DNA of 64,000 nucleotides, from the NCBI RefSeq assembly GCF_009931435.1, contig NZ_CP043414.1; one strand, 5' to 3'. Below the pieces are notes generated by a model that worked only from the letters and a program-made list of their open reading frames with translations, did not search any database and was not told the DNA's origin. The stretch comes from Escherichia coli. GTDB lineage: Bacteria > Pseudomonadota > Gammaproteobacteria > Enterobacterales > Enterobacteriaceae. Shown piece by piece: positions 1 through 61,949 of the stretch (positions are counted from its first letter, which is position 1; every line of letters begins with the position of its first letter). The translations under genes were made by a program, and so were the position numbers.

Positions 1-2546
1 TCCAGCGCCGCGCGCATTTTCTCCTGACGTTTGGCATCGTAACGCTTCAGGCGAATCAGCGGTTCAATCAGACGTGAAGCCACCTGCGGGTTACGGCTGT
101 TGAGGTCGGTAAGCATTTCCACCAGGAACTGGTAACCGCTGCCATCTTCGGCATGGAACGCTGCCGGGTTGCTGCCCGCAAACGCGCCAATCAACGAACG
201 AATGCGGTTCGGGTTGCTCATGGTAAATGAGCGATGCTGCAACAGACCACGCACCGTCTCCAGCACATTCGCCGCCGGGCTGGTGGCTTGCAGGATAAAC
301 CATTTATCCATCACCAGACCATCCTGATGCCACTTGTCGTCGTACTCCTGCATCAGCGCGTCACGGCATGGCAGCTGTGCAGCAACCGCCGCAGAAAGCG
401 CGGCCAGCGCATCGGTCATATTGTTTGCTTCATGGAACTGCTTGCTTACCAGCACGTCAGCCAGATGCGTTTCACCAAAAGCGAGGAAGCGCAGGCAGGC
501 ATTTCGCAGAGTGCGTTTTGCAATATCTTCATGCTCAACGCGATACTCGCTCTGGTAATTCGCGTTGTAAATAGCCAGCAGCTCATCCGCCAGTTCAGTC
601 GCCAGAGTACGGGTGAGTGCTTCACGCACTTCGGCAATAGCAATCGGATCGATGATATCGAACAGTTCTGCCATTTCATTGACGGAAGGCAGCGTCAGAA
701 TTTCTGCCGCCAGCGCCGGATCAATCCTCTCATCGAGCAGCACCGCGCGGAAAGCGTCAGCCACATGCACCGGCAGAGACAGCGGCTGCCCTTGCTGATG
801 ACGGGCGACGTTGAGCTTGATGTAGGTTGCCAGCAGGCTTTGCGCCGCATCCCAGCGGGAGAAATCATTACGCGCATGACGCATCAGGAAGGTCAGTTGC
901 TGATCGCTCCACTTATATTCCAGTTTCACTGGCGCAGAGAATTCGCACAGCAGTGCGGGCACCGGCTGGAAGTAGACATTATCAAAGACAAAGGTCTGTT
1001 CCGCCTGGGTGACGTTCAGCACCGAATTCACCGGGTGACCGCCTTTCTGCAACGGGATCACTTTGCCTTCGTTGTCATACAGTTCGATGGCAAACGGAAT
1101 ATGCAGCGGCTGTTTTTCTGCCTGATCCGGCGTAGCAGGCGTGCGCTGGCTGATGGTCAGGGTGTACTGCTCGGTTTCCGGATTATAGTCGTCTTTGACG
1201 GTCACAACCGGCGTACCGGACTGGCTGTACCAACGGCGGAAATGGGAGAGATCGACATTTGACGCATCTTCCATCGCCTGAACAAAGTCGTCGCAGGTTG
1301 CCGCACTGCCATCATGGCGCTCGAAATAGAGCTGCATCCCTTTCTGGAAGTTTTCTTCGCCCAGCAGAGTGTGGATCATGCGAATCACTTCCGCGCCCTT
1401 CTCATAAACGGTCAGGGTGTAGAAGTTGTTCATTTCAATAACCATATCCGGGCGGATCGGGTGCGCCATCGGGCTGGCATCTTCCGCAAACTGCAACCCG
1501 CGCATGGTGCGCACGTTGTTGATACGGTTTACTGCGCGGGAACCAAGATCAGAGCTGAACTCCTGATCGCGGAACACGGTTAAGCCTTCTTTCAGGCTGA
1601 GCTGGAACCAGTCGCGGCAGGTCACACGGTTACCGGTCCAGTTATGGAAATATTCATGACCAATAACGCGCTCAATATCGAGATAATCTTTATCGGTCGC
1701 GGTATCGGTGCGCGCCAGTACATACTTAGAGTTAAAGATGTTAAGACCTTTATTCTCCATTGCGCCCATATTGAAGAAATCCACCGCGACGATCATATAG
1801 ATGTCGAGGTCATACTCCAGGCCGAAGCGTTCTTCATCCCATTTCATGGAGTTTTTCAGCGAGGTCATCGCCCATGGCGCACGATCAAGATTGCCGCGAT
1901 CGACGTACAGCTCCAGCGCTACTTCGCGACCAGAACGCGTGGTGAAGGTGTCGCGCAGTACATCAAAGTCACCTGCCACCAGCGCAAACAGGTAGCACGG
2001 TTTCGGGAACGGGTCCTGCCATTGTACCCAGTGGCGTCCATTTTCCAGTTCGCCTTGCGCAACGCGGTTACCGTTGGAAAGCAGGAACGGGTATTTGGTT
2101 TTATCGGCAATAATTTTGGTGGTAAAACGCGCCAGCACGTCCGGGCGGTCGAGATAATACGTAATATGGCGGAAACCTTCGGCTTCACACTGGGTGCAAA
2201 GCGCATCGCCTGACTGATAAAGCCCTTCCAGCGCAGTATTCGCCGCTGGGCTAATTTCATTAACGATCTTGAGCGTAAAACGCTCCGGCAAATTACTGAT
2301 GACCAGTGCGCCCTCTTCTTCTTTCCAGGCGGTCCACGTCTCATCATTAATATGAACAGAAACCAGTTTAAGATCTTCGCCATCAAGACGAAGCGGAGCA
2401 TCTGATGCACCATGACGGACAGCCTGGCTGACCGCGGTAACGACCGTCTTTTGCGCGTCCAGGTCAAAGGTCAAGTCAATATCAGTAATCTGGTAATCCG
2501 GCGCACGATAATCGTGACGGTATTTGGCTTGTGGCTGTTGAGTCAT
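1..2546 (-). CDS. pepN: Aminopeptidase N, partial: the window begins about 22 codons before the stop, so the C-terminal end is missing
   Basis: Reverse-strand translation from the ATG at 2546 reads MTQQPQAKYRH...; the window start translates to the PepN C-terminal region (...SNPNRIRSLIGAFAGSNPAAFHAEDGSGYQFLVEML...). Not in the ORF track because the stop lies outside the window. Confidence 0.93.
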   Translation of the reverse strand, partial: MTQQPQAKYRHDYRAPDYQITDIDLTFDLDAQKTVVTAVSQAVRHGASDAPLRLDGEDLKLVSVHINDETWTAWKEEEGALVISNLPERFTLKIVNEISPAANTALEGLYQSGDALCTQCEAEGFRHITYYLDRPDVLARFTTKIIADKTKYPFLLSNGNRVAQGELENGRHWVQWQDPFPKPCYLFALVAGDFDVLRDTFTTRSGREVALELYVDRGNLDRAPWAMTSLKNSMKWDEERFGLEYDLDIYMIVAVDFFNMGAMENKGLNIFNSKYVLARTDTATDKDYLDIERVIGHEYFHNWTGNRVTCRDWFQLSLKEGLTVFRDQEFSSDLGSRAVNRINNVRTMRGLQFAEDASPMAHPIRPDMVIEMNNFYTLTVYEKGAEVIRMIHTLLGEENFQKGMQLYFERHDGSAATCDDFVQAMEDASNVDLSHFRRWYSQSGTPVVTVKDDYNPETEQYTLTISQRTPATPDQAEKQPLHIPFAIELYDNEGKVIPLQKGGHPVNSVLNVTQAEQTFVFDNVYFQPVPALLCEFSAPVKLEYKWSDQQLTFLMRHARNDFSRWDAAQSLLATYIKLNVARHQQGQPLSLPVHVADAFRAVLLDERIDPALAAEILTLPSVNEMAELFDIIDPIAIAEVREALTRTLATELADELLAIYNANYQSEYRVEHEDIAKRTLRNACLRFLAFGETHLADVLVSKQFHEANNMTDALAALSAAVAAQLPCRDALMQEYDDKWHQDGLVMDKWFILQATSPAANVLETVRGLLQHRSFTMSNPNRIRSLIGAFAGSNPAAFHAEDGSGYQFLVEMLTDLNSRNPQVASRLIEPLIRLKRYDAKRQEKMRAAL

Positions 2547-2764
2547 AAATAACCTTTAGCATCTTTTATAGAGTCTGGTGTTCAGTCTATTCCTGTTGCG
2601 TAAATCGCGCTATGCAGAATCTTCATCTTTTCAGGTACAAACGCCTTTATTGCTACATTTTTATAACATACACCGCGTAATGCCATCGACCAGAAAGGTG
2701 GCATATGGTGTGATCGGGGTTCAATAAATTGCGAAACAAGGTATACTCCAGCAGTTCCTGAAGA

Positions 2765-2782
2765 TGTTTATTGTACTAAACG
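2765..2782. promoter_or_regulatory. Candidate NadR operator (NAD box) in the pepN-pncB divergent intergenic region
   Basis: Sequence TGTTTA-TTGTAC-TAAACG is a near-perfect inverted repeat matching the TGTTTA-N6-TAAACA NAD box, about 30 bp upstream of the pncB ATG; pncB is a known NadR target. Confidence 0.55.
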
Positions 2783-2811
2783 CTCCTGTACGAGGACGCT
2801 ACTGCGCACCT

Positions 2812-4014
2812 ATGACACAATTCGCTTCTCCTGTTCTGCACTCGTTGCTGGATACAGATGCTTATAAGTTGCATATGCAGCAAGCCGTGTTTCATCACTA
2901 TTACGATGTGCATGTCGCGGCGGAGTTTCGTTGCCGAGGTGACGATCTGCTGGGTATTTATGCCGATGCTATTCGTGAACAGGTTCAGGCGATGCAGCAC
3001 CTGCGCCTGCAGGATGATGAATATCAATGGCTCTCAGCCCTGCCTTTCTTTAAAGCCGACTATCTTAACTGGCTACGCGAGTTCCGCTTTAACCCGGAAC
3101 AAGTCACCGTGTCCAACGATAATGGCAAGCTGGATATTCGTTTAAGCGGCCCGTGGCGTGAAGTCATCCTCTGGGAAGTTCCTTTGCTGGCGGTTATCAG
3201 TGAAATGGTGCATCGCTATCGCTCACCGCAGGCCGACGTTGCGCAAGCCCTCGACACGCTGGAAAGCAAATTAGCCGACTTCTCGGCATTAACCGCCGGT
3301 CTTGATATGTCGCGCTTCCATCTGATGGATTTTGGCACCCGCCGACGTTTTTCTCGTGAAGTACAAGAAACCATCGTGAAACGTCTGCAACAGGAATCCT
3401 GGTTCGTAGGCACCAGCAACTACGATCTGGCGCGTCGGCTTTCCCTTACGCCAATGGGAACACAAGCACACGAATGGTTCCAGGCGCATCAGCAAATCAG
3501 TCCGGATCTTGCCAACAGCCAGCGAGCTGCACTCGCTGCCTGGCTGGAAGAATATCCCGACCAACTTGGCATTGCGTTAACCGACTGTATTACCATGGAT
3601 GCTTTCCTGCGAGATTTCGGCGTAGAATTTGCCAGCCGCTATCAGGGCTTGCGTCATGACTCCGGCGACCCGGTTGAATGGGGTGAAAAAGCCATTGCAC
3701 ATTATGAGAAGCTGGGAATTGATCCACAGAGTAAAACGCTGGTTTTCTCTGACAATCTGGATTTACGCAAAGCGGTTGAGCTATACCGCCATTTCTCTTC
3801 CCGCGTGCAATTAAGTTTTGGTATTGGGACTCGCCTGACCTGCGATATCCCCCAGGTAAAACCCCTGAATATTGTCATTAAGTTGGTTGAGTGTAACGGT
3901 AAACCGGTGGCGAAACTTTCTGACAGCCCTGGCAAAACTATCTGCCACGATAAAGCGTTTGTTCGGGCGCTGCGCAAAGCGTTCGACCTTCCGCATATTA
4001 AAAAAGCCAGTTAA
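2812..4014 (+). CDS. pncB: Nicotinate phosphoribosyltransferase
   Basis: ORF 2764..4014; start taken at the internal ATG 2812 giving [24 protein letters not shown]..., 400 aa, matching E. coli PncB. Confidence 0.95.
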
Positions 4015-39439: not shown

Positions 39440-41722
39440 ATGTCCGAGCTTAATGAAAAGTTAGCCACAGCCTGGGAAGGTTTTACCAAAGGTGACTGGC
39501 AGAATGAAGTAAACGTCCGTGACTTCATTCAGAAAAACTACACTCCGTACGAGGGTGACGAGTCCTTCCTGGCTGGCGCTACTGAAGCGACCACCACCCT
39601 GTGGGACAAAGTAATGGAAGGCGTTAAACTGGAAAACCGCACTCACGCGCCAGTTGACTTTGACACCGCTGTTGCTTCCACCATCACCTCTCACGACGCT
39701 GGCTACATCAACAAAGCGTTGGAAAAAGTTGTTGGTCTGCAGACTGAAGCTCCGCTGAAACGTGCTCTTATCCCGTTCGGTGGTATCAAAATGATCGAAG
39801 GTTCCTGCAAAGCGTACAACCGCGAACTGGACCCGATGATCAAAAAAATCTTCACTGAATACCGTAAAACTCACAACCAGGGCGTGTTCGACGTTTACAC
39901 TCCGGACATCCTGCGTTGCCGTAAATCCGGTGTTCTGACCGGTCTGCCAGATGCTTATGGCCGTGGTCGTATCATCGGTGACTACCGTCGCGTTGCGCTG
40001 TACGGTATCGACTACCTGATGAAAGACAAATACGCTCAGTTCACCTCTCTGCAGGCTGATCTGGAAAACGGCGTAAACCTGGAACAGACTATCCGTCTGC
40101 GCGAAGAAATCGCTGAACAGCACCGCGCTCTGGGTCAGATGAAAGAAATGGCTGCGAAATACGGCTACGACATCTCTGGTCCGGCTACCAACGCTCAGGA
40201 AGCTATCCAGTGGACTTACTTCGGCTACCTGGCTGCTGTTAAGTCTCAGAACGGTGCTGCAATGTCCTTCGGTCGTACCTCCACCTTCCTGGATGTGTAC
40301 ATCGAACGTGACCTGAAAGCTGGCAAGATCACCGAACAAGAAGCGCAGGAAATGGTTGACCACCTGGTCATGAAACTGCGTATGGTTCGCTTCCTGCGTA
40401 CTCCGGAATACGATGAACTGTTCTCTGGCGACCCGATCTGGGCAACCGAATCTATCGGTGGTATGGGCCTCGACGGTCGTACCCTGGTTACCAAAAACAG
40501 CTTCCGTTTCCTGAACACCCTGTACACCATGGGTCCGTCTCCGGAACCGAACATGACCATTCTGTGGTCTGAAAAACTGCCGCTGAACTTCAAGAAATTC
40601 GCCGCTAAAGTGTCCATTGACACCTCTTCTCTGCAGTATGAGAACGATGACCTGATGCGTCCGGACTTCAACAACGATGACTACGCTATCGCTTGCTGCG
40701 TAAGCCCGATGATCGTTGGTAAACAAATGCAGTTCTTCGGTGCGCGTGCAAACCTGGCGAAAACCATGCTGTACGCAATCAACGGCGGCGTTGACGAAAA
40801 ACTGAAAATGCAGGTTGGTCCGAAATCTGAACCGATCAAAGGCGACGTCCTGAACTACGATGAAGTGATGGAGCGCATGGATCACTTCATGGACTGGCTG
40901 GCTAAACAGTACATCACCGCACTGAACATCATCCACTACATGCACGACAAGTACAGCTACGAAGCCTCTCTGATGGCGCTGCACGACCGTGACGTTATCC
41001 GCACCATGGCATGTGGTATTGCTGGTCTGTCCGTTGCTGCTGACTCCCTGTCTGCAATCAAATATGCGAAAGTTAAACCGATTCGTGACGAAGACGGTCT
41101 GGCTATCGACTTCGAAATCGAAGGCGAATACCCGCAGTTTGGTAACAACGACCCGCGTGTAGATGACCTGGCGGTTGACCTGGTAGAACGTTTCATGAAG
41201 AAAATTCAGAAACTGCACACCTACCGTGACGCAATCCCGACTCAGTCTGTTCTGACCATCACTTCTAACGTTGTGTATGGTAAGAAAACTGGTAACACCC
41301 CAGACGGTCGTCGTGCTGGCGCGCCGTTCGGACCGGGTGCTAACCCGATGCACGGTCGTGACCAGAAAGGTGCTGTAGCATCTCTGACTTCCGTTGCTAA
41401 ACTGCCGTTTGCTTACGCTAAAGATGGTATCTCCTACACCTTCTCTATCGTTCCGAACGCACTGGGTAAAGACGACGAAGTTCGTAAGACCAACCTGGCT
41501 GGTCTGATGGATGGTTACTTCCACCACGAAGCATCCATCGAAGGTGGTCAGCACCTGAACGTTAACGTGATGAACCGTGAAATGCTGCTCGACGCGATGG
41601 AAAACCCGGAAAAATATCCGCAGCTGACCATCCGTGTATCTGGCTACGCAGTACGTTTCAACTCGCTGACTAAAGAACAGCAGCAGGACGTTATTACTCG
41701 TACCTTCACTCAATCTATGTAA
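39440..41722 (+). CDS. pflB: Pyruvate formate-lyase (formate C-acetyltransferase 1)
   Basis: 760-aa [55 protein letters not shown]... with the C-terminal glycyl-radical motif RVSGYAV. Confidence 0.98.
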
Positions 41723-45974: not shown

Positions 45975-47123
45975 TTACACGTGAGCAACGGGTTTCGGCG
46001 TATGACCGGCGTTGCGAAGCAGCATCAGCAAATAGATAAACGATACGCTGGCGATCATGATAAACAATAAATTATCGGAGAAATTCTGCATTAGCATAGC
46101 GGTAAATGACGGGCCAAGCAGACTTCCTACGGTATAGCTCAACAGTAAGGCCTGGTTCATCGCCACCAGTTGATGATGTTCAACTTTCTCGCAAGCCCAT
46201 GCCATCGCCACCGGATATAGCGTAAAGCCAGCGGCACCGAGGATGAATAACGCTGGGGCCATCGCCGCCTGGCTAAGCATCGCGATACTGCCGAGAATGA
46301 CGACAAAGACCTGAACACGCAACACCAGCAGTCGACCAAACTTATCCGCCAGACGTCCAATCGGCCATTGTCCAAGGATACCCGCACTGACCAGTACCGC
46401 CATCCAGAAACCAATGCTGGCATTGCTCACCCCTTTGTGATTGAGGTACAGCGGCATCAGGCCATATAGAGATCCCAGAACGATTCCTGAGATAATGCAG
46501 CCATTCACGCCAAGCCGCGCCTGACGGAGTTTTAGCATGGACGTAATTAACGTCGAATCATGGTTTTCAGCCTGCTGATTCAGCACACGCGTAAACAACA
46601 GCGGTAAGATCCCTGCCAACGTCAAACCTGTAACCCACGGCAATACGGACATCAGCTCGGTTGAAACTTTGCTGACCAGTAACTGGCCTAAAAACGTTCC
46701 CACGTAATAAACCATCATATACGCAGCAAGCAAACGCCCACGGTTACGTGACGTCCCACTGCACATCAGCGCGCTCTCAACAACCACCCAAATCATGGCA
46801 CAGCCGACGCCGGCGACAAAACGCCAAGCCAACCAGCTCCAGAATCCAATCATCAGGCCAAGGCCGGCACAGCCAGCGGCAAAAATGAAGGAGGCCAGAT
46901 AATAGCTGCGGTTAAAGCCAATGCGCTTAATGACATACCCTGTCAGCAATGTACCGACCAGGTTGCCGGTAAAATAGGATGAGCTGACAACGCCTACCTG
47001 CCATGTGGACATATGTTCCTGGGCGAGCCAAAGCGGCACGAGTGTATTTAACACTGCGATCGCCAAAGTCAACAAAAGCAGGCCAGACAGCAAAAGCATG
47101 ACAGGCCGGGTATACGTGGACAT
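45975..47123 (-). CDS. ycaD: Major facilitator superfamily transporter YcaD
   Basis: 382-aa, 12-helix-type ORF matching YcaD. Confidence 0.9.
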
Positions 47124-58700: not shown

Positions 58701-59810
58701 TTCTCCCGTTTGCGGCCCCGGTACAGGCTGCCAGGCTACTGTAGGTTGCGTAGGTGGAACATCAACAGAGGCAACTGGCGGCGTCTGAGTCACAGGTTCA
58801 ACCGGTGCAGCCCAGCTTTGTGTCGCCGTGGTAGCAGCAGCTGCTACAGCAACAGGTTCGGTAATTGGCGCACCGTTTAATAATGGATCGTATTCGTCAT
58901 ATTCTGGCTGCGTTGCACGATTGCCCGAAAAGAGGACGTCGTCAGGGTCGGCAGCCACACCGCGTGCAGTGTAGGTAATCTCTTCTTCATCATCCATCCG
59001 CTTACCGGAGAACAACGCAGCATCTGTTTGCCGCCCCATCGGATTAATGAATTTTTCCGCCAGACGTTTACGACGTGCTAGCGCGCCGCGAAGAATACGG
59101 GCACGGCGCGATTCATGCTGTTTGCCGTGATTTTCATCTTCATATTCTTCGTCGTCTTCATACTCATCTTCATCGACCCAGGTATCATCGCGACGGGTAC
59201 GATTACTGGCGAAGGTGAGAATGTTTAAAATCCAGCCGCCGAGTTTTTCAGCAATGGTCACCCATGACCAACCGGTGAACAGCGTCAGGCCCGCTGCCCA
59301 AACGCAGAGCAGCGCAATAGTTCCCCCGCTACTGTGTAGCAGTGGTTGTAGCGTAGTGCTTAGTAAGCTGCCGATGACGCCACCGGAGGCAAAATACCAG
59401 ATATCGTCAGCGTTGATTGCCGCCAGACCACAAGAGGTAAGGATTAGCGCCAAAACGCCAATGATGCGTAGCGAAACGGCAAAATAATCAATGTATTCGT
59501 CACTGGACTGATGACGCCAGGCAAACCAACAACCGCCGACGATAATGACGGGAATGGTGTAAGCCATCACGCCAAAAATAAAGAACAGCGTATCTGCCAG
59601 CCACGCACCGGGCATTCCACCTAAATTATGGATAGGCTCATGCCAGGCCGTTTGCGACCAGCTGGGGTCCGAAGGGTTAAAGCTTAGTAAGGCAGCCATC
59701 AACCAGACGGCAAACAGGACAATAAGGATCAGCAACGCCTCCAGAAGTCGGCGGCCGCTACTTAACTTTGTCAATGTGACTTCTTTGTCTTCAGTGTATT
59801 CCTGGCTCAA
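55782..59810 (-). CDS. ftsK: DNA translocase FtsK
   Basis: 1342-aa ORF; N-terminal transmembrane domain, long Pro/Gln-rich linker, C-terminal motor with Walker A GTTGSGKS and gamma domain. Confidence 0.97.
57325..57565 (-). repeat. Tandem array of about six 39-bp units inside ftsK, encoding 13-aa [17 protein letters not shown] repeats
   Basis: Near-identical 39-bp units (e.g. TGCGGCTGCTGATATTGCTGCTGTGGTGCAACCGGCTGT) read head-to-tail on the plus strand; translation on the minus strand gives [13 protein letters not shown] repeated. Confidence 0.85.
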
Positions 59811-59888
59811 GAAAGGCTCTCCAGGTTACAGGCTTTTCCTGCCCGATGCTAAAACGGACAACAGTACCAGGTTACCCTAGTACTGTTG

Positions 59889-59904
59889 CTGTATGGATTA
59901 ACAG
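59889..59904. promoter_or_regulatory. LexA box (SOS operator) in the ftsK promoter region
   Basis: CTGT-ATGGATTA-ACAG fits the CTGT-N8-ACAG LexA consensus, about 80 bp upstream of the ftsK start; ftsK has a known SOS-inducible promoter (dinH). Confidence 0.65.
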
Positions 59905-59944
59905 GAGTGTAATCAAAATACGCCGATTTTGCACCTGTTCCGTG

Positions 59945-60439
59945 TTAGCGCGTCTTAATAACCAGACGATTACTCTGCTTGACTTCTTCCATAACAACGT
60001 ATGTCCGCGTGTCATTGACGCCAGGCAGACGCAGCAGGGTTTCCCCTAGCAACTTACGGTAAGCCGACATATCCGGCACGCGTGTTTTCAACAGGTAGTC
60101 GAAATCACCGGATACTAAATGACACTCCTGAATTTCTTCAAGTTTTTGTACAGCGGTATTGAATTGTTCAAACACATCCGGTGCGCCACGATTCAGAGTA
60201 ATCTCAACGAATACCAGAAGTGATGCATCCAGATAATGGGGGTTCAGCAGCGCTGTATAGCCCTGAATAAACCCTTGTCTTTCCAGCCGACGCACACGCT
60301 CAAGGCACGGCGTTGGGGAAAGTCCCACACGTTTAGAAAGCTCGACGTTAGAAATACGCCCATCCTTTTGCAACTCATTAAGAATGTTACGATCGATACG
60401 GTCGAGATCTTTGCCAGGGCGCTTCTTGCTATCTACCAT
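59945..60439 (-). CDS. lrp: Leucine-responsive regulatory protein
   Basis: ORF 59945..60493; start at the internal ATG 60439 (MVDSKKRPGKDLDRIDRNILNELQKDGRISNVELSKRVGLSPTPCL...), 164 aa. Confidence 0.96.
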   Translation of the reverse strand: MVDSKKRPGKDLDRIDRNILNELQKDGRISNVELSKRVGLSPTPCLERVRRLERQGFIQGYTALLNPHYLDASLLVFVEITLNRGAPDVFEQFNTAVQKLEEIQECHLVSGDFDYLLKTRVPDMSAYRKLLGETLLRLPGVNDTRTYVVMEEVKQSNRLVIKTR

Positions 60440-60866
60440 TATTATTGTCTCTCTGTATTCCTTCCCTACTCCTGTCTGACCCTGAAACATCACTGTTCAG
60501 AGTCGCTACCCGTCACGATAGACCGAAATCATTAAGATTCACGGCGCGCAATGCCTGGTCTACGGTGAGAAGACCGTTGCCTGGTGGCAGCTATCGACAT
60601 CACGAATGGCGTCTGTCCACGCCATACGTAGATTTCACTAGCACGGTAAACATGGTATTTACATGCATGGTTATGCGCATATAAGAATACTGTTTTTTTT
60701 CTTCCTCGAATGTTTTCGCAAAACACCAGGGGATTGTCAAAGCAAAACATCGATTTTTAGTACAACATGCCAGATATTCATTAACAGGGGCGTTTATTCA
60801 TCATTTAATCGGCTTATAACGCGGGAAATTTAAGTAGCAGAGGTGATAATGCCGGAGGGAGTTTGA

Positions 60867-61949
<1,083 letters not shown>

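Follow-up and report, generated by a model that had tools for sequence, protein, structure and literature searches.

The LexA-type palindrome in the spacer between lrp and ftsK is almost certainly the LexA operator already known from the dinH (P2) promoter of E. coli ftsK. It was found in a 64-kb stretch of E. coli DNA (64,000 nucleotides, referred to below as the window), and all of the sequence-level features that define an E. coli-type LexA operator are present. A connection between FtsK and the SOS response has been textbook knowledge since the 1990s. The ftsK operator was already known, and this site is the dinH box itself in another E. coli strain. Sequence identity, matrix score and conservation are from the present analysis; the transcription start, the repressor footprint and LexA-dependent induction are taken from the cited papers.

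The genes, the operator and the ftsK translation signals are arranged as follows.

59945..60439, minus strand: lrp coding sequence (164 aa), from the list of open reading frames and the RefSeq naming in near-identical E. coli records
59887..59906, minus strand: LexA operator (SOS box), the 20-mer TCCTGTTAATCCATACAGCA, from pattern match, matrix, published box and conservation
59817..59822, minus strand: ftsK Shine-Dalgarno sequence GGAGAG, inside the conserved block CCTGGAGAGCC and near-invariant in an alignment of 20 species
59808..59810, minus strand: ftsK TTG start codon, kept in 19 of 20 aligned species
55782..59810, minus strand: ftsK coding sequence (1342 aa) for the DNA translocase FtsK, from the list of open reading frames and RefSeq annotation

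The lrp stop codon ends at 59945 on the minus strand, and the spacer is 134 bp long (59811..59944). The 1.1-kb lrp/ftsK region was matched in 5425 of 5426 complete E. coli genomes, where the two genes are annotated as lrp and ftsK. Compared with K-12 MG1655, the 201 nt around the spacer have two differing positions. Just one of these is in the spacer, at 59878, where the window has A for the G of K-12; it is outside the box, and the spacer has no indels. Because this alignment is gap-free, K-12 coordinates can be transferred exactly to the window, with K-12 933224 (the ftsK start) anchored at window position 59810. Over the 1.1 kb from 59500 to 60600, identity is at least 99% in just 18 of 5426 E. 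coli records and 95–99% in the others, so the window belongs to an E. coli lineage that has been sequenced less often; even here the promoter/operator segment is virtually invariant.

The GGAGAG sequence lies 6 nt from the TTG start codon (8 nt if counted from GGAG). This weak start is otherwise conserved, with ATG in its place in Morganella only. In the minimum free energy (MFE) fold of 59799..59825 (minus strand), CCTGG at the beginning of the Shine-Dalgarno sequence can form 5 bp with CCAGG in ftsK codons 2–4, so that the larger part of the ribosome-binding site is enclosed together with the TTG start. Neither arm varies across species, yet each is also constrained for other reasons. Slightly upstream, at 59832..59852 (minus strand), a segment of about 14–15 nt (the ATCGGGCAGGAAAAGCCTGTAA region) with a small CAGG/CCTG stem is found in Escherichia, Salmonella, Citrobacter, Klebsiella and Enterobacter; Kosakonia, Buttiauxella, Cedecea and genera at a greater distance lack it.

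The core of the box, CTGTATGGATTAACAG at 59889..59904, fits CTG-N10-CAG (CTGT-N8-ACAG) with no mismatches and is the single CTGT-N8-ACAG occurrence in the window. The earlier note had put this core at exactly these coordinates in the 134-bp spacer, and had read it as an LexA-type SOS operator controlling ftsK. That reading is borne out by identity with the published ftsK box, to which the strand and the dinH identity can now be added. The published ftsK LexA motif (ACTCCTGTTAATCCATACAGCAACA; Thomassen et al. 2010, PMC3009722) reads exactly as the minus strand of window positions 59884..59908. Taken alone, the core pattern is no more than chance: 64 kb should contain 0.84 copies on average, and at least one was present in 56 of 100 shuffled windows.

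For a quantitative measure, a LexA position weight matrix was built from 17 published E. coli sites (Table 4 of Thomassen et al. 2010, PMC3009722), with ftsK left out. The 20-mer at 59887..59906 (TGCTGTATGGATTAACAGGA) scores 15.0 bits with the matrix as listed and 16.3 bits with a symmetrised version, below most or all of the 17 reference sites (16.9–30.5 bits as listed, 13.7–29.0 bits symmetrised). It ranks second in the window with the first matrix, first with the other, and is the best intergenic match. Scores this high were attained in 13% (as listed) or 3.5% (symmetrised) of random 64-kb Markov sequences. The heterology index computed from the same small site set is 10.0–10.3; a value of 9.2 has been published (Courcelle 2001, in the table of PMC11228462). 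Against the customary cut-off of 15 (PMC11002266), both are within the verified range (below about 15), toward its weak end. The matrix result is that of a plausible but weak operator, and is insufficient alone to settle the matter. The earlier note had proposed that a low matrix score would count against the site. This applies in part, the score being toward the weak end of genuine sites, but it is overridden by functional data on the identical K-12 sequence.

Three further matches to the LexA matrix, at 46128..46147, 40892..40911 and 50568..50587 (TACGGTATAGCTCAACAGTA, GACTGGCTGGCTAAACAGTA and TGCTGGTTAATCAGGCAGTT), score 10–16 bits. All are within long ORFs (382, 760 and 814 aa), the first has CGG where CTG is expected, and they are probably due to chance. 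A second LexA box in the spacer, based on the TACTGT half-site at 59861..59866 (TACTGTTGTCCGTTTTAGCA), was also considered and rejected: it has no CAG and is not among the top matrix scores. This half-site is the 3′ arm of a hairpin described below.

To compare the site across species, Lrp was used as the query in a scan with one genome per species, of which the best 80 Lrp loci, all from Enterobacterales, were kept. A CTG-N10-CAG box is found at the orthologous position in 76 of these best 80 loci, 36–53 nt past the lrp stop codon and 52–143 nt ahead of ftsK. There are 20 distinct box 20-mers among the 76, all of them CTG-N10-CAG, with invariant ends (TCCTG...ACAG) and a variable centre, the pattern expected for LexA recognition. 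Within the species, the 61-nt segment comprising promoter and box has at least 99% identity in 5417 of 5426 E. coli records. Identity with the published ftsK box and the recurrence at the same position in 76 of the best 80 loci take the box beyond chance. A chance palindrome without LexA function could be expected about once per 64 kb (0.84), and would fit a marginal matrix score that 3.5–13% of random sequences attain, but this explanation is extremely improbable. A published LexA site with functional footprints has the identical sequence; a random match would hardly recur in the same place with invariant CTG/CAG ends around a variable centre; and this is the sole high-scoring match outside an ORF. 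In practice, chance is already refuted by the cited footprints and LexA-dependent expression.

Box strength differs among lineages. Escherichia, Salmonella, Citrobacter, Klebsiella and Enterobacter have a common 16-bit version, and stronger ftsK boxes of 19–21 bits (e.g., TCCTGTTTATTCATACAGTT) are found in Serratia, Hafnia, Edwardsiella, Morganella, Proteus, Photorhabdus and Xenorhabdus (loci L036, L054, L055, L064, L065 and L071–L082). In three Providencia species (L056, L058 and L060) and Moellerella (L057), the −35, the −10 and the box have all been lost. Their lrp-ftsK spacers (about 1995..2915 in locus coordinates) have expanded to 401–919 bp, where LexA scores peak at 4–12 bits. In the Providencia/Moellerella branch of the Morganellaceae, ftsK thus seems to have lost its direct SOS control, or this control has moved elsewhere.

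The promoter associated with the box was located from conservation and from published Reg-Seq data.

59929..59934, minus strand: −35-like hexamer GTGCAA of dinH (ftsK P2), from conservation and Reg-Seq information, with a register of ±1 nt
59906..59911, minus strand: −10-like hexamer TACACT, from conservation and Reg-Seq information
59896..59896, minus strand: equivalent of the LexA-regulated ftsK start (K-12 933138), at the box centre, by gap-free alignment, the start itself being from the literature

The hexamers are 17 nt apart, and TACACT adjoins the LexA 20-mer, with one base common to both. The block GTGCAAAA around GTGCAA is strongly conserved across Enterobacterales. Around TACACT (TACACTCCTG), nine of ten positions are invariant in the 76 box-bearing loci and the remaining one is kept in at least 90%. 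GTGCAA agrees with TTGACA at three of six positions, and the two hexamers together with the consensus at seven of 12. The Reg-Seq study places the LexA-regulated start at K-12 933138, for which it cites Lewis et al. 1992 J. Bacteriol. (PMC7567609). With this literature start, the LexA box spans about −10 to +10, overlapping the core promoter, and the distance from the −10 hexamer to the start is 9 nt, which is long. The per-base Reg-Seq values for ftsK include RNA-polymerase-like (positive) information at −38 to −35 and −16 to −11, a strong signal at −39 where mutation raises expression, and repressor-like values from −8 to +5 (PMC7567609). Allowing for a register uncertainty of ±1 nt, these features fall on GTGCAA, TACACT and the box. 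Replacing the initial G of GTGCAA with T would give a better −35, in keeping with the signal at −39.

A consensus promoter and terminator scan of 59500..60900 gave no minus-strand promoter and no terminator. GTGCAA/TACACT was missed because, with just seven of 12 positions matching the consensus, it is under the scan thresholds. Another pair of hexamers, TTGATT-17-TACAGC, was tried as the dinH promoter and rejected, since TTGATT is unconserved outside Enterobacteriaceae and the annotated start and Reg-Seq footprints fit GTGCAA/TACACT.

Published work on K-12 bears directly on regulation at this site. The ftsK gene is tabulated among the genes under LexA control that have a known SOS box (PMC6590174). 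As related in PMC4080785, its expression goes up in the SOS response (Wang & Lutkenhaus 1998), its first promoter (P1) is inside lrp and dispensable, and its second (P2), the SOS promoter dinH, is essential (both from Dorazi & Dewar 2000). In Reg-Seq, ftsK/LexA served as a "gold standard" site, and a repressor footprint was recovered at −8 to +4 and assigned to LexA, weak over the right half-site (CAG) of the box (PMC7567609). This footprint vanishes with H2O2 (PMC12133099). By RNA-seq, induction of ftsK by AZT was 1.5-fold and its dependence on lexA (lexA3) 1.7-fold, weak but significant, with expression lower in lexA3 (PMC11228462). Ciprofloxacin gave a log2 fold change of up to 0.94, with no matching rise in activated FtsK protein (PMC11002266), and UV induction was seen in a tiling array (PMC3009722). 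Measured SOS induction of ftsK is thus small. Overall, LexA binding and damage induction are documented for the identical K-12 sequence, with the primary binding experiments and start mapping available here at second hand. The tie between ftsK and DNA-damage signalling proposed in the earlier note agrees with these data, in particular LexA-dependent induction in K-12 and loss of the footprint with H2O2 (PMC11228462, PMC12133099).

Small induction leaves room for the idea that the block is conserved mainly as promoter or initial-transcribed sequence, or as the site of another regulator, with LexA control physiologically marginal. The sequence TACACTCC, upstream of CTG, is conserved beyond the needs of LexA; induction is only 1.5–1.7-fold (PMC11228462); FtsK protein does not track the transcript (PMC11002266); and there is little Reg-Seq signal at the right half-site. 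All the same, this is very unlikely. Fixed CTG...CAG ends with a free centre are a LexA signature and unlike a promoter, many lineages have the stronger 19–21-bit box, the repressor footprint is gone under an SOS-inducing condition (PMC12133099), and expression is reduced in lexA3 (PMC11228462).

Between the box and ftsK, the spacer also encodes a structured RNA segment.

59858..59889, minus strand: conserved RNA hairpin, from MFE folding and covariation, at +8 to +39 of the dinH transcript
59858..59858, minus strand: equivalent of a Term-seq RNA 3′ end (K-12 933176), at the last paired base of the hairpin

The hairpin has a 14-bp stem and an MFE of −23.2 kcal/mol (z = −6.3). In a covariation alignment (A2, loci L002–L080) with 65 distinct sequences, 9–12 of its pairs, within 59860..59887, are backed by covariation. 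Of the hairpin cells, 92.6% are paired, vs. 36–57% in controls slid by 1–3 columns; 11 of 12 pairs have changed on both sides, and the observed values were reached by none of 500 shuffles. RNAalifold predicted nine pairs, all nine with compensatory changes. G-U pairs make up about 9% of the hairpin cells. They would be mismatched on the opposite strand, and their frequency indicates that the hairpin belongs to the sense RNA running from lrp to ftsK. Because of the A at 59878, where K-12 has G, one hairpin pair that is G-U in K-12 is A-U in the window. A search of 59600..60100 against Rfam gave nothing near any gathering score, leaving the hairpin without an Rfam family. A simple hairpin finder wrongly called the Pectobacterium loci; the alignment shows the stem there.

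As a stable, GC-rich stem-loop the hairpin has the stem of an intrinsic terminator, but an uninterrupted U tract straight after the stem was not found. The tail is CCGUUUUAGC past the 14-bp stem, or UUGUCCGUUUU past the 9-bp core stem, and across species the 10-nt tail has a median of four U residues. The 3′ end at K-12 933176 (+), 48 nt upstream of ftsK, is classed as "orphan" in the supplements of Adams et al. 2021, where it has a Rho score of 1.03 (not Rho-dependent), an intrinsic terminator score of 1.70 against a threshold of 3, and coverage of 475 upstream vs. 419 downstream (PMC7815308). These values, the weak U tract and the position of P1 inside lrp uphold the suggestion of the earlier note that ftsK can also be reached by read-through from lrp. 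Providencia and Moellerella have lost the promoter and box but still have the hairpin right behind lrp, which argues that it belongs to the lrp 3′ end. It is probably a leaky lrp terminator or 3′-end hairpin. As judged from sequence comparison, the 76 box-bearing species have the predicted SOS promoter nested in the interval from the lrp stop codon to this hairpin. The same Term-seq data set has a strong 3′ end in the lrp 5′ leader, at K-12 932430 (+), 165 nt upstream of lrp and equivalent to a position near 60604 in the window; its intrinsic-terminator score is 7.4, it too is labeled "orphan," and it may be a site of premature termination upstream of lrp (PMC7815308).

The hairpin could instead be a dinH 5′ leader element, either an mRNA-stabilising 5′ hairpin or an attenuator yielding a 39-nt RNA. 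It begins about 8 nt past the annotated start, the distance from 933138 to the published 3′ end at 933176 corresponds to a 39-nt RNA, and the structure is strongly supported by covariation. Its place next to lrp in Providencia and Moellerella, with promoter and box lost and ftsK 400–900 bp away, and the small effects of single bases across +9 to +43 in Reg-Seq make this a minority possibility at best. A related proposal, that the nested hairpin at +8 to +39 acts on dinH transcripts, through premature termination (the 39-nt RNA) or as a 5′ stabiliser, is distinctly doubtful. If it were true, the hairpin would control ftsK dosage after initiation, as a checkpoint in the SOS response that is conserved across Enterobacterales.

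The arrangement suggests the following course of events. A weak sigma-70 promoter (GTGCAA, 17 nt, TACACT) lies just past the lrp stop codon. A LexA dimer on the box (−10 to +10) would sterically exclude RNA polymerase, as the 20-bp box begins at the last base of the −10 and spans the start. After DNA damage, RecA-stimulated self-cleavage of LexA would free the promoter, and ftsK transcription would rise modestly. Repression would be partial, the operator being far from consensus. A weak operator and small induction would fit an essential division gene that uses this promoter in undamaged cells. Transcripts from lrp and from the promoter inside lrp would also feed ftsK, through the leaky hairpin below the box.

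The site joins chromosome-dimer resolution and septum closure, through FtsK, to DNA-damage signalling. What is added here is modest, and not a discovery: the comparative conservation of the box and the nested arrangement of promoter and hairpin. The comparison places the operator in most Enterobacterales, in a weaker form in Escherichia, Salmonella and Klebsiella than in Serratia, Hafnia, Edwardsiella and the Morganellaceae.

Of known systems, the K-12 dinH/ftsK P2 SOS promoter is at the same locus and has the identical 20-mer and identical flanks. The window is from another E. coli lineage and differs by one spacer base (59878), with no difference of substance. The K-12 promoter and box were reportedly described by Lewis et al. 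in 1992 and 1994, Wang & Lutkenhaus in 1998 and Dorazi & Dewar in 2000, and the box is said to be listed by Fernandez de Henestrosa in 2000 and Courcelle in 2001. Among other SOS genes, the weak operators of polB, dinB and dinG (heterology index 8.6–13) are likewise CTG-N10-CAG with poor flanks or centre and low fold-induction, and the matrix score of the ftsK site falls among theirs. Unlike these genes, ftsK is essential, its SOS promoter is also a housekeeping promoter, and its box is centred on +1. The hairpin resembles leaky intergenic intrinsic terminators between co-oriented genes in its GC-rich stem, its loop (mostly 3–6 nt), its U-containing tail, a 3′ end at the base of the stem and partial read-through into the downstream gene. 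It departs from them in its poor U tract, its score of 1.70 against a threshold of 3 and a coverage that hardly drops, and in having a regulated promoter nested between the stop codon and the hairpin.
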